Assembly (NCBI RefSeq): GCF_057098645.1
Contig: NZ_CM169472.1
Length of the DNA stretch: 64,000 bases
Reading direction: 5' to 3' (one strand)
The notes beneath the pieces were generated by a model, which saw only the letters and a program-made list of their open reading frames with translations, had not been told where the DNA came from and searched no databases. This document shows positions 21,746 through 27,375 of the stretch, one piece after another (the stretch's first letter is position 1; each line of letters opens with the position of its first letter). The position numbers and the translations under genes are program-made.

Positions 21746-21859
21746 AATATATCCAGAAAATAAAATCTGCCGCAGATAAATGAATTAATAGTCTGTATCA
21801 GGAATGTTCGGGTTAAATATCAGCAAAAAGCCAGCATCATGAATACTGGATATTTATAG

Positions 21860-21888
21860 CCTGCAGGCAGCATACTGCTGCCTGCAGG
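21860..21888. terminator. stem-loop downstream of autotransporter remnant (cctgcaggcagc-atact-gctgcctgcagg)
   Basis: 12-bp perfect inverted repeat read from sequence. Confidence 0.4.
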
Positions 21889-21926
21889 GGGTATAACAGT
21901 CGACAGGGGAACCGACTGCTTTATTC

Positions 21927-23159
21927 TTACCAGGTCACATTGATACCAACTACACCCTGTAGCGGATTCTCAATGTCGTCACCTTTGGTGTAGTCAAGGC
22001 TTGCATATGCTCCCATGTTTTTGGTGATATCAGCCTGTACACCTGCACCCACGCGGAATGCTGCACCGTCAATGCTGGCATTGACAGACTCATCACCCAG
22101 ACGGACTTTGTTGCCATCAGAGAATTCGTTCAGTGCGGCCAGATTCAGATAAGGTTTAACGCTCGCGTTGCCCACAGCGAAGTCATAACCCACGCGCGTA
22201 CCGGCCTCACCCAGCACAGAATTATAGCTGTCAGAATGAACGTTCACGCCGTTGAGTTGATAATCCACACCTTCCAGCGTCAGCGCAGACAGTTTGGCAT
22301 ATGGCTGAATAAACAGGCCATTACCGTCTTTCCATGTGTAACCGCCTTTAACCATCGCACCGAAACCATTGGTGTTAAAGTCAGCTTTGATGGTACCGCC
22401 ACCATTCATCAGGCGAACATCTGCCGTGTTGCTGTAGTGACCAAACTGTGCAGCAGTATCAATGAAGATACCGTTGTTATACTGGCGGCTCAGGTAAGCG
22501 TGGAAGCTGTAACCTTCAGTGTCGCCTTTGCTCTGCATGGTGGTCATGTCACCTTTCGCAGAAGACATCGCCACACCGGCCAGCCAGCTACCATCTTCAG
22601 TCATGAAGCGGGTATCACCACCCAGCATTACACCGTTTACATCCAGGTCATAGGATGCATTTCCCGCGGTGGTATGTTTCTGTTTACCGCCAAAGTACTG
22701 AATCCATACGCCGCCCTTGTCATTTTCGCTCAGACGGACAGCATCCTGACGGGCTGAGAGCGTGTCAGCCTGCAGATTAGCGACGTTAGCCGGAGCAGCT
22801 GCCATTGCCTGAATCACGGAGCTGGCGTTGGATGCTTTATGCGTGTTTTTTACGAAATAAAAGTTACCATCAGCTCCCTGTGTCAGGTCATATTGATACA
22901 GACCACCTTCCGTTGTGCCTGTGGCTTTTAGAGTGCTGTCTTTGCCGGTAGAAATAAATGCCGTTTGTTCATTGATAAGATCCAATGAACCCGCACTGTA
23001 AACACGCAAGTCACCGCTCGCTTTACCGCTGATATCCAGAGTGTTTTCAGAAGAGGCATCAACAATCAGAGTGCCGTTTTGAGAAGCAAACGTGCCAGTA
23101 TTGACTGTAGCCTTCGTGATATTAACCGTACTGTCTTTTACTGCCAGAGCATCAACTGA
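21927..23159 (-). pseudogene. autotransporter remnant: C-terminal beta-barrel translocator plus partial passenger, 5' part replaced by IS
   Basis: ORF 21927..23009 ends ...YTKGDDIENPLQGVVGINVTW (aromatic C-terminus, alternating beta-strand pattern); passenger-like sequence continues in other frames up to the IS end at 23160; no N-terminal signal peptide present. Confidence 0.7.
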
Positions 23160-23198
23160 ACCGCCCCGGGTTTCCTGGAGAGTGTTTTATCTGTGAAC

Positions 23199-24089
23199 TC
23201 AGGCTGCCAGATCATCGTTTCCGATGGAAGTATAATAAGCTTTTTCTGCTTCTGCCGGAGGAGTATGGCCCAGCCTTTCCAGCAATCGTCGATTGTTATA
23301 CCAGTCCACCCACGTGAGTGTGGCCAGTTCCACTTCTGCACGGTTTTTCCAGCTCTTACGGTGTATTACCTCCGCTTTGTAAAGACCATTGATGCTCTCC
23401 GCCATCGCGTTGTCATACGAGTCGCCTGTACTTCCTGTTGATGCCAGTAATCCGGCTTCCTTAAGCCGCTGTGTGTAGGCCAGCGATACATACTGAGAAC
23501 CTTTATCACTGTGATGGACCGTGCCGGACGGTCGACGGGCCCATAACGCCTGCTCCAGTGCATCCAGCACGAATGTCGTCTCCATGGACGATGAGACCCG
23601 CCACCCCACAATGTATCCGGCAAACACATCAATGATGAACGCCACATAGACGAAGCCCTGCCATGTGCTGACGTAAGTAAAATCAGCCACCCACAGCTGG
23701 TCAGGTCGTTCTGCCACGAACTGACGGTTTACGCGGTCGCCTGCGGCAACGGCTTTCCGGCTGATGGTCGTACGGACCTTTTTACCCCGGAGAACACCGG
23801 CAAGTCCCATAACCGCCATGAGACGTGCCACAGTGCATCTGGCCACTCTGATACCTTCCCGTAACAACTGACGCCAGACTTTACGCACACCGTATACCTT
23901 GTGATTTTCATCGTATACGCGCTGTATCTCTTTCTTCAGCCAGTCATCGCGCTGCGCACGGGCACTGCGTTTATCCGGATGATGTCGCTGTTGCTGACAG
24001 TGGTAATACGTTGACGGGGCAATATGCAGTTCGCTGCATAGCGGTCCGACCCCGTACTGCTCACGCAGCTTATCCAGCAGTGGCATCAT
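23199..24089 (-). CDS. IS3-family transposase OrfB (DDE integrase domain)
   Basis: 296 aa with integrase-core; overlaps orfA by ATGA as in frameshift-fusion transposases. Confidence 0.85.
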
Positions 24090-24412
24090 TTTTTCCAGAG
24101 GCGGTCGAACTCCGCCTTCGCAAAATAAGCGGAAGCCTGGCGAAGGATATCGTTACTGCGGCGCAGTTCACGATTTTCACGCTCCAGCTCTTTCAGACGC
24201 TGACGTTCAGCGGTGGTGAGCCCTCCATCACCGCCCCCGGTATCCCGCTCATGCTGGCGAACCCAGACACGCAGAGTCTCCGGCGTACAGCCAATCTTTG
24301 GAGCAATGGAACAAATTGTCGCCCATTGTGAGTCATATTCGCCCTGACTTTCCAGAACCATACGGACTGCCCGTTGACGGACTTCAGGGGAAAAACGAGT
24401 ATTTTTAGTCAT
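24086..24412 (-). CDS. IS3-family transposase OrfA (HTH plus leucine zipper)
   Basis: 108 aa [19 protein letters not shown]...; matches remembered IS629 OrfA. Confidence 0.85.
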
Positions 24413-25419: not shown

Positions 25420-25458
25420 TCAGACTCGTCCACGCCATTGCTACGAAACCTGACATTT

Positions 25459-25735
25459 TGATTCAAAATGTCAGGTTTGGTTTAATTGCCTGAATATTTA
25501 ATTTTCTTGGAATATGAATTTATTTTTTTGATTTTTATTTTTTTTAATTTGGTTGCATTTAACAACATGAGTGAAAGTTAATCACTGGTATGACCTTGGC
25601 GGTTAATCATTTCAAATCATGGGGTTATTTTACTTTAGCGAGAAATATCAACATGTTATGTGTTTTATTGAATTGAATGGGCTGTTTTTTTATGGAAGAA
25701 TTGAGGAAAACGTAGGAATCTGACATTTTGAATCA
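25459..25735. promoter_or_regulatory. candidate invertible DNA switch: 16-bp perfect inverted repeats flanking ~245 bp of AT-rich DNA
   Basis: TGATTCAAAATGTCAG at 25459-25474 and exact reverse complement CTGACATTTTGAATCA at 25720-25735; lies between recombinase stop (25748) and LuxR start (25419). Confidence 0.6.
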
Positions 25736-25747
25736 GAAGGTACTGTT

Positions 25748-26335
25748 TTAACGAGGCTTTTTTTTCCACACCCCTTTAAATCGAGCAGCATTACTGGCTG
25801 TGTATCTGACAGTATGCTGGATATTTCGATGACCCAGATAATCCTGAAGTAGTCGGGTATCGACACCATTGTCAGCCAGAGCAAAACCACAGGCATGACG
25901 TAACATATGAGGATGTGCTTTTACAGCTAATCCTGCACGTCTTCCAGCCTCACGAATGATAGAAAAAAAATGTTGTCTGCTGATAGGGCGGCGTTTCCGG
26001 GAGAGAAAAAGCCAGTCTCCTTCAACTCCGTTTTCAATTAACTTCCTCTGCTTAAGCCACAACTTGATCAAATTATATTCATCAGGAAGAAGAGGATGTG
26101 TTGTCGAGAAACCATTTTTAATCCGCCGAATATTAAGTTGTTTTCCTGATGCATCAATATCGGATAAACGTAAATCAAGAAGTTCACTGGCCCTAAAACC
26201 GTGAATGAAAGCCATCATAATTAGACAGCGATTTCTTTCAGGAAAGGACATGCTCTGGGCTGCATCCATCAGCCTGTAGACTTCATCCTGTGTGAGATAT
26301 ACGCCACCGTGTACAGTTGTAAAAAAGAGAGGCAC
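25748..26335 (-). CDS. FimB/FimE-family tyrosine site-specific recombinase (FimX-like, tentative)
   Basis: Aligns by eye to FimB: FIHGFRASE, HPHMLRHACGFALA, LGHRNIQHTVRYT (R-H-R-Y catalytic residues); apparent GTG start. Confidence 0.8.
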   Translation of the reverse strand: MPLFFTTVHGGVYLTQDEVYRLMDAAQSMSFPERNRCLIMMAFIHGFRASELLDLRLSDIDASGKQLNIRRIKNGFSTTHPLLPDEYNLIKLWLKQRKLIENGVEGDWLFLSRKRRPISRQHFFSIIREAGRRAGLAVKAHPHMLRHACGFALADNGVDTRLLQDYLGHRNIQHTVRYTASNAARFKGVWKKKPR

Positions 26336-27060
26336 ACCCAGATAAGTATGCCTGCAATCAGAACGTTATCGATGTAATCTCATTATCTCATTAATAAGAT
26401 TTTTTGAATAGTAGTTCTACGCAATAGACTAAATATGAACTATTTATTGTGCTGCTTTTCTACAAGCCATTTTTAATGCGTGTTTTTATCTACATTGATG
26501 TGAAAAAATAAATATAAAAGCTATGAATTACAGGGCGTGGGGGATGTGTGTTACGTCTAATGTTTTAGTGATGTTTAGTAGTTTTGAGATATTTGACGTT
26601 ATTTCTTATGAGGTTGTTTTTATTATTTATCTTATTGATTTTGTATGCATTTTGTCGTTCAATGAAGTTATGGTGTAGAAAATAAAAATTTAATATTATT
26701 TCCGTTAATTTACAATAACACATTGGTTGTAAGATATTTTTTAGTCGTAAGTAAATCGTTATTGATGGGTTCTGCTAATAAATTAAAGATGTTCTCTTAA
26801 ATAGTTTTTTTGCTTTTTGTAAATATCAATTTGTTTATTTTTGATTCATTTGCTGGAGAGTATTTAAATAATTTTTATTTTTTTGCATAAACTTATTAAC
26901 AACTTTTTATTACCAATTAGAAATCAATGTAAACTAAAATGTTAGCGAAGCGATAACCTTGTGCTAAAAAATATTTAAGCATGATGATTAATTAAAGAAG
27001 AGTAAAAATAAATCACTGCTAATAAATTATACGAATTGTGTTTAAAGCTCCACGTTGTTT
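26336..27060. other. ~725 bp extremely AT-rich ORF-free tract upstream of the recombinase gene
   Basis: Composition visibly far below flanking genes; no ORF of 60 aa or more on either strand in the track. Confidence 0.8.
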
Positions 27061-27375
27061 TGGTCTGACTTATTTTTGTCCTCGTTACAAGAACCCTTTT
27101 CGTATATGCTAACCGTGAGCGGGAGTGAACAAGTCACCATAGCCAGGAACACTAGCGGCGTAATTCTTAAGCTGAGTGGCATTTCACCTGCGGTTTATCA
27201 GTGCATTCATAGTACCTTCATCAGCGAGATTGAACGAGTCAGCTTAGAATTTGCTGGCGAGGTTGTCACTATGAAGCATGAGAGTTACCCCTATGTTTTA
27301 TATAACGATTCTGTCCCCATACCTGGAACGGTAACTCTCAATCTGATCGGTTCCTGCGTTAGTTCACATCACGAC

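Follow-up and report, generated by a model that had tools for sequence, protein, structure and literature searches.

What happened between ykgH and betA in an Escherichia coli genome in which the gene of an autotransporter stops abruptly at an insertion sequence (IS)? The question arises in a 64,000-nt stretch of contig NZ_CM169472.1, referred to here as the window, and coordinates are positions in it unless another locus is named. The interval was found to be a decayed remnant of PAI-X, or the hyx locus, a named and published island. A complete IS of the IS629/IS1203 group occupies the place of the 5' part of the autotransporter gene hyxB (also known as upaB) and of almost all of the neighbouring gene hyxA. 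This arrangement probably arose by insertion of the IS into upaB in an ancestor, followed by deletions of flanking DNA that were anchored at the IS.

Identity of the island

The gap between ykgH and betA measures 5,630 bp in the window, whereas only 212 bp separate the ykgH start from the betA stop in K-12 MG1655, in agreement with an earlier reading of the same DNA from its letters alone (the sequence-only reading), which described the two genes as near neighbours in K-12 and set ~5.6 kb apart here. An alignment with K-12 ends at 21853 and restarts at 27270, leaving an accessory segment between these points. Collinear loci with 99.7-99.9% identity were found in related genomes, and the names given in their RefSeq records are ykgH, hyxB, hyxA, hyxR, ipbA and betA. 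The O145 strain RM12367-C1 is collinear with the window and 99.9% identical to it over the 64 kb.

PAI-X has been described as fimX plus hyxRAB, with upaB as an alias of hyxB, and was present 'in several variations' in 24 of 50 genomes (PMC3789825). Roughly one in three E. coli genomes has the hyx locus between ykgH and betA, and the intact order of the locus is betA, an AT-rich spacer, ipbA (fimX), hyxS, hyxR, hyxA, hyxB (upaB) and ykgH. The window has the locus at the same site but with a reduced gene set: ipbA and hyxR are whole, whereas only 5-6 nt of hyxA and the last 409 codons of hyxB survive, which makes the locus an island remnant rather than a complete copy. The half that encodes the effectors is destroyed, but invertase, switch and regulator have all been left intact. 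An accessory island had been correctly recognised in the sequence-only reading, which missed both its identity as PAI-X and the intact invertase, switch and regulator module.

DNA missing from upaB and hyxA

Intact orthologues were found in two strains. In the extraintestinal pathogenic E. coli (ExPEC) strain S88 the locus is intact, with hyxB of 765 aa, hyxA of 253 aa, hyxR of 264 aa and an ipbA product annotated as 'also known as HbiF and FimX'. In the O145 strain 99-3311 (locus L003) hyxB encodes 646 aa and hyxA occupies positions 3410-4171. The window is made up of L003 positions 1-2657, the IS, and L003 from position 4166 to the end, with 1,508 bp missing relative to 99-3311. Relative to S88 it runs to position 5620 and resumes at 7486, with 1,865 bp missing. 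The lost DNA comprises upaB codons 1-356 (1-237 in the short allele), the 41-bp hyxB-hyxA spacer and hyxA except for its first 5-6 nt.

Both breakpoints of the deletion fall on the ends of the intact IS. Setting the 5' end of an intact orthologue against the IS junction, as the sequence-only reading had proposed, thus yields a gap of 1,508 or 1,865 bp bounded exactly by both IS ends, which points to an IS-anchored deletion rather than a simple insertion. The same reading would have been undone by an intact autotransporter N-terminus immediately beyond 24466. None is present there, the sequence past the IS consisting of the 5-6 nt of hyxA and the 153-bp hyxR-hyxA spacer, followed by hyxR. Its proposal of an IS-mediated loss of the N-terminus and adjacent DNA holds as far as the deletion is concerned, the adjacent DNA being hyxA; that the IS itself caused the deletion is a step further, which we infer from the coincidence of the ends.

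The upaB remnant is an open frame of 409 codons on the minus strand that extends from 23156 to a stop at 21927 (Table 1). Residues 10-409 match the autotransporter beta-barrel domain model TIGR01414 (E = 2.7e-70), and residues 131-399 match the BrkA translocator 3QQ2, as expected for the 12-stranded C-terminal beta-barrel of the AT-1 class. Residues 1-133 show complete identity with positions 334-466 of the UpaB passenger in its crystal structure (PDB 6BEA, 6BEA_A), and this equivalent is all that is left of the passenger. Codons 1-356 of the 765-aa protein are gone, and with them the N-terminal signal peptide and the complete beta-helix passenger that belong to an AT-1 protein. The description of a beta-barrel with a partial passenger cut sharply at the IS was therefore accurate, and the same fragment in strain C325 is annotated in RefSeq as 'hyxB, incomplete, missing N-terminus'. 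As the remnant lacks a start codon and a signal peptide and retains less than one third of the passenger, the strain is predicted from its sequence to be unable to make UpaB. HyxA is gone. An early idea that the autotransporter might be EhaA was discarded, as ehaA occupies a different place in the window, in the betT-pdeL interval.

Table 1. Features of the ykgH-betA region in the window
Feature	Coordinates	Strand	Basis or remark
ykgH, left core gene	21077..21745	-	222-aa open reading frame (ORF); annotated ykgH in collinear O145, S88 and K-12 records
Accessory segment without K-12 counterpart (PAI-X remnant including the IS), 5,416 bp	21854..27269		K-12 alignment
hyxB (upaB) 3' remnant, pseudogene	21927..23156	-	Codons 357-765 of the 765-aa allele: last passenger part, linker, beta-barrel
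Complete IS3-family IS, IS629/IS1203 group, 1,310 bp, no target-site duplication	23157..24466	-	Repeats, ORFs, identity
IS orfB, 296 aa, catalytic transposase part	23199..24089	-	NF033516, E = 4.4e-94
IS orfA, 108 aa	24086..24412	-	Matches N-terminal part of NF033516
hyxA remnant, first 5 nt ATGCG (6 nt counting the ambiguous A at the joint)	24467..24471	-	Flank resumes at L003 4166/4167
hyxR, LuxR-type regulator, intact, 264 aa	24625..25419	-	Pfam GerE PF00196; HyxR in collinear records
hyxS, candidate invertible promoter element	25459..25735		16-bp inverted repeats TGATTCAAAATGTCAG (25459-25474) and CTGACATTTTGAATCA (25720-25735)
ipbA (fimX, hbiF), Fim-type tyrosine DNA invertase, intact	25748..26335	-	NF007370; RefSeq 'IpbA, also known as HbiF and FimX'
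AT-rich non-coding right end of island	26336..27269		Composition profile; GC 0.22 at 26600-26999
betA, right core gene	27376..29046	-	ORF; annotated betA in collinear records; coordinate mapping

The insertion sequence

The IS is present as a single copy in the window. It begins with TGAACCGCCCCGGG and ends with CCCGGGGCGGTTCA, and has the size of ~1.3 kb and the TG...CA terminal repeats of its group. The terminal inverted repeats (23157-23181 and 24442-24466) agree at 23 of 25 positions, and the first 14 are perfect, as the sequence-only reading had stated, although it placed the left end at 23160, 3-4 nt away from the actual end at 23157; its right end at 24466 was correct. The orfB product scored 315.7 bits with the IS3 transposase model NF033516 (cut-off 160). 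The two frames overlap at 24086-24089 in the two-ORF arrangement read through a -1 frameshift, and copies with 99.9% identity are annotated with 'programmed frameshift'. Copies with 99.9% identity were found in O145, C325 and Z1323HEC0422, and identity falls to 96.0% with a copy in O157 annotated as IS1203-family and to 94.9% with the copy in RM9154-C1. Given the 96% identity to the O157 copy, the earlier label 'IS629-like' is a fair one.

The sequences flanking the IS read ...CATCAAC and CGCATCC..., and comparison of AAC with CGC reveals no duplication. The 3-4-bp target-site duplication that goes with IS3 elements of the IS629/IS1203 group is thus absent, and the direct repeat of that length that would have spoken for a simple insertion was looked for and not found, bearing out the claim that no matching duplication is present. 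As the lack of a duplication is explained by deletion of a flank, it is no argument against assignment of the IS to this family. Neither the spacing of the genes, the autotransporter remnant, the IS nor the unmatched flanks can be put down to chance.

Alleles of the locus in related genomes

Further alleles of the locus were examined in the comparison set of 5,426 complete E. coli genomes. Besides the intact locus of 99-3311, five simple insertions of the same IS family were found, each with a 3-4-bp duplication: ATG in upaB of RM12367-C1 (L003 3119-3121), ATAC in hyxA of the O157 strain 644-PT8, TTA in hyxR of DX6, GTA in ykgH of UID2309220026 and GCT in the upaB barrel of APEC 102026. A second group carries IS-anchored deletions without a duplication. 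In 12E115 the IS stands at the RM12367-C1 site, and 462 bp of the right flank and 2 bp of the left flank are missing. The others are RM9154-C1 (with another IS variant), C325, Z1323HEC0422 and a Danish poultry strain.

C325 and Z1323HEC0422 group with the window. Left junctions in these three genomes lie within 5 bp of each other, at CAAC/ in the window, CAACAGT/ in C325 and CAACAGTTG/ in Z1323HEC0422 (the slash marks the joint with the IS). The right junctions differ: hyxA is cut at nt 5 in the window and at nt 99 in C325, which retains an additional 94 bp of the gene, and in Z1323HEC0422 the junction falls within hyxS. The TTG that Z1323HEC0422 has in addition fits the long allele, CAACAGTTGAGG, and not the short allele, and the parent therefore probably carried the 765-aa allele. 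Target mimicry of the IS ends, a property reported of certain IS3-family members, was considered as a reason for the clustering of the left junctions and rejected, since local alignment of both IS ends with the S88 locus gave scores of 14 and 10 at the site and 22-24 at unrelated places. An orientation bias was likewise discarded: all IS copies retrieved in the locus were co-oriented, which is an artefact of retrieval because the search joins pieces of one strand only and inverted copies rank lower.

Neither the exact left nor the exact right junction of the window has a single-piece, full-length match in the complete genomes. This could suggest that no deletion occurred, and that the IS was simply inserted into a short, lineage-specific version of the island or that the junctions are an assembly artefact from reads collapsed at the IS. 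However, the IS directly adjoins the hyxA start codon with the full hyxR-hyxA spacer behind it and breaks off the upaB frame within the passenger, hence functional genes were interrupted. In addition, the relatives keep nested amounts of the same DNA (as in the hyxA of C325), almost identical left junctions recur in three genomes that were assembled independently, and simple insertions of this IS give duplications of which there is no sign here. An explanation without a deletion is thus very unlikely, and the exact junction, which is private to this genome, may serve as a lineage marker.

A second alternative is descent from an insertion of the RM12367-C1 type, with its ATG duplication, by two IS-anchored deletions of 464 bp on the left and 1,047 bp on the right. 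The IS copies of the two genomes are 99.92% identical and their flanking DNA is 99.9% identical, and 12E115 demonstrates that the RM12367-C1 insertion does spawn flank deletions. However, any IS copy of the variant that is dominant in the lineage would be expected to be nearly identical. The window, C325 and Z1323HEC0422 share 26761A and 26852G, in distinction from the four short-allele O145 strains examined, which have A at 26852; 26852G is also found in all four outgroups compared (O157, S88, DX6 and APEC 102026). This pattern indicates that the three genomes branch apart from the short-allele strains instead of falling within them. As the left junction of the window is also no more than 5 bp from those of C325 and Z1323HEC0422, the latter of which keeps the long-allele TTG, descent from an insertion of the RM12367-C1 type is unlikely.

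Two details of these alleles were noted in passing. In the pair RM12367-C1 and 12E115, GATG/TGAACC becomes GA/TGAACC (L002 3119-3122 versus L004 3118-3120), and in the pair Z1323HEC0422 and C325, GTTG/TGAACC becomes GT/TGAACC (L006 2660-2663 versus L001 2659-2661). In both independent pairs the genome with an extra deletion of the right flank also lacks the TG next to the terminal TG of the IS, which could be due to slippage in the TGTG run or to one event altering both junctions. In the Danish poultry strain, CAG is present on both sides of the IS (L007 2699-2701 and 4012-4014) even though 1,547 bp of the S88 sequence is missing; the result resembles a duplication but may instead be a joint at 3 bp of microhomology.

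Origin of the junctions

The course of events that we regard as probable would begin in a common ancestor of the window, C325 and Z1323HEC0422, where an IS copy entered upaB at ...CAACAGTTG/ or immediately beside it. The predicted ancestral junctions are CAACAGTTG/TGAACC... and ...GGTTCA/TTGAGGAACC, as for a simple insertion into the long allele with a TTG duplication. IS-anchored deletions would then have taken unequal lengths of the right flank, with end points at hyxA nt 5 (window), at hyxA nt 99 (C325) and within hyxS (Z1323HEC0422), and the left junction would have been trimmed by 5 bp, 2 bp and 0 bp, respectively. The IS-excision enhancer (IEE) possibly helped such deletions. According to papers that cite the original work, IS629 transposase together with IEE gives rise to simple excision and to deletions of IS flanks ranging from a few nucleotides to >40 kb. 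E. coli O145:H28 carries iee and many IS629 copies (PMC5567499).

Several points weigh against ancestral insertion followed by IS-anchored deletion. The predicted ancestral simple insertion (CAACAGTTG/IS/TTGAGG) was found in none of the 5,426 complete genomes. Both junctions differ among the three relatives, so that no fewer than four events must be assumed, in one of several possible orders. The joints in the window have at most 1 bp of microhomology and hence no visible end-joining signature of IEE; elsewhere, microhomology is seen in the 3-bp CAG of the poultry strain and possibly in a TGA in C325. The iee gene itself, the ECs1305 homologue borne on SpLE1-like elements, is not in the 64-kb window. 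The grouping of the window with C325 and Z1323HEC0422 depends on two single nucleotide polymorphisms, one of which is homoplasic in the outgroups, together with the position of the junction, and the choice of the long over the short allele as parent depends on 3 nt in one relative.

The missing duplication would be accounted for equally well by two independently inserted direct IS copies, one in upaB at ...CATCAAC/ and the other at the hyxA start, between which RecA-dependent recombination removed the intervening segment and one copy, leaving a hybrid IS with unrelated flanks. IS629-type elements have indeed struck this locus repeatedly and independently, in ykgH, the upaB barrel, the upaB 5' end, hyxA and hyxR, and O145-type genomes have about 38 places matching an IS-containing query. 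However, none of the genomes inspected has a locus with two copies. Recombination of this kind predicts one fixed junction, whereas the window, C325 and Z1323HEC0422 differ at both, and a separate second insertion would be needed in each of the three close relatives. In 12E115, moreover, the side that should have stayed unchanged differs by 2 bp from that of RM12367-C1. Recombination between two copies, although the foremost of the alternatives, is therefore unlikely, and a single ancestral insertion with later deletions anchored at the IS is preferred.

The short upaB allele as a possible excision scar

The short allele of O145, which encodes 646 aa, equals the long allele minus 357 bp in frame (S88 5623-5979), with the junction at L003 2659/2660 corresponding to positions 5622/5980 of the S88 locus (L008). 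As a single piece, this junction was found only in O145 genomes among the matches listed. The left breakpoint, after CAACAG, falls inside the 5-bp cluster of left IS junctions in the sister branch, within 0-3 bp of them. For a gene of 2.3 kb, the chance that one of two breakpoints lies no more than 3 bp from a particular site is roughly estimated at ~0.6%. It is conceivable, though doubtful, that the ancestral IS was excised along with 354 bp of its flank and that the short allele is the scar left after healing in frame, in which case the locus may record remodelling of both junctions by IS629-type elements. On this reading of the scar its left end would lie 3 nt outside the former IS end, at the position nicked in figure-eight formation by IS3-type elements. 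The TG losses in the two pairs described above hint at one event altering both junctions.

Another breakpoint nearby was observed in O157 644-PT8, where the right breakpoint of a hyxB deletion (S88 5607) lies 13-18 nt from the cluster of IS junctions.

The invertase, switch and regulator

The retained half of the island begins with ipbA, whose product matches the invertase subfamily model NF007370 with E = 7.9e-74 and 247.6 bits (cut-off 221). The C-terminal GerE helix-turn-helix of HyxR was detected at residues 135-181 (PF00196, E = 3.9e-6), and a search of HyxR with the NCBIfam models gave no match. There are no differences from the O145 copies within hyxR.

The switch hyxS has been reported to be inverted by FimX, to have 16-bp inverted repeats and to control hyxR (PMC6083910; PMC8777976). 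The candidate in the window, recognised by its repeats and position, has a perfect 16-nt core, equal in length to the published repeat. Its orientation is that of 1,780 of the 1,891 genomes holding the region. A sigma-70 consensus from which the ON or OFF state might be read was sought in 25380-25800 and none was found.

The hyxR-proximal repeat of hyxS lies within a 33-nt near-perfect palindrome of 15 pairs round a 3-nt loop (25446-25478; partner 25717-25748), and therefore stands in both inverted and direct repeat relation to the distal repeat. In the Danish poultry strain (L007 5269-5287), FDAARGOS_943 and MB06102, ~250-270 bp exactly between these sites is missing, which looks like deletion of the switch rather than its inversion.

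An unannotated ORF of 46 codons (24490-24627, minus strand) with a hydrophobic C-terminal half was also observed. It overlaps the hyxR stop by ATGA and ends just before the ribosome-binding site of hyxA. Although open in four lineages, it was rejected as a conserved gene, as all five substitutions are non-synonymous and none is synonymous.

Neighbouring features

In the AT-rich right-hand 0.9 kb of the island (26336-27269) the sole annotation in related records is a hypothetical ORF of 44 codons, and several differences in homopolymer length occur there among strains.

Two further large adhesin genes flank the region, fdeC (an inverse autotransporter; 7591-11844) and ehaA (an autotransporter in the betT-pdeL interval; 33867-37850), both placed by transfer of coordinates from the RM12367-C1 annotation. 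With the upaB remnant, they make three adhesin loci within 30 kb.

The yahD gene (ankyrin-repeat protein, 201 aa) is intact at 40902-41507, whereas RM12367-C1 lacks ~124 bp of it (41143-41266) and has two partial annotated pieces. Positions 1-99 of the window could not be aligned to RM12367-C1 and end with ...GGGGCAAATCCA, which presumably resembles the IS2 terminal repeat and would mean an extra IS by the ykgR region that is not in RM12367-C1.

Implications for the strain

UpaB binds fibronectin and glycosaminoglycans in uropathogenic E. coli, HyxA has been associated in ST131 with resistance to serum and with the chain length of the O antigen, and FimX can act on the type 1 fimbrial switch. 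The strain keeps the FimX invertase and HyxR without UpaB and HyxA, which is of little relevance beyond strain typing. The allelic series is a natural example of IS629-anchored deletions that can be used for testing models of IEE action, and involves no new element or mechanism.

Comparison with known systems

The closest counterpart is the PAI-X of the ExPEC strains UTI89, CFT073, EC958 and S88, which has the same ykgH-betA site, gene order and orientation. It also shares the invertase, hyxR and the 16-bp hyxS repeats, and the 133 passenger residues of the UpaB remnant are identical to those of the crystallised protein. The window differs in lacking hyxA and upaB codons 1-356, with an IS in their place, and its island is ~94-97% identical to that of S88 and stands in an enterohaemorrhagic E. 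coli (EHEC) background of the O145:H28 type.

A second parallel is found in the hyx locus of O157:H7 644-PT8 (L009), where the same island in a related EHEC lineage is also decayed and has been hit by an IS1203-type element. There the decay is broader, in that ykgH and hyxR each contain an internal stop, upaB has lost 1,037 bp out of frame, hyxA carries the simple insertion with its 4-bp duplication and ipbA is frameshifted, whereas the half of the window with ipbA, hyxS and hyxR is intact. The pattern fits a general decay of PAI-X in the O157/O145 EHEC lineage.

The deletion also resembles the small structural polymorphisms associated with IS629/IS1203 in EHEC O157, O26, O111, O121 and O145, in the IS group, the IS-bounded deletion, the lost duplication and the alternative lengths in relatives. 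Comparison with the IEE-promoted flank deletions of EHEC gives a more limited likeness, in that the lineage is reported to carry iee but the joints in the window have no visible microhomology and the window does not contain iee. For the retained half, the nearest parallel architecture is the ipuA/ipuB-ipuS-ipuR-upaE module of CFT073, which follows the same design of Fim-type invertase, invertible promoter, LuxR-type regulator and downstream autotransporter adhesin (PMC6083910). The likeness is one of architecture only, as the ipu module lies at another locus and has other genes and 7-bp rather than 16-bp repeats.

The locus is thus a case of ordinary IS-driven gene decay, of a kind well known in EHEC lineages. 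The island, adhesin, regulator, switch, IS family and type of deletion have all been described already; the specific junction is new and the phenomenon is known.

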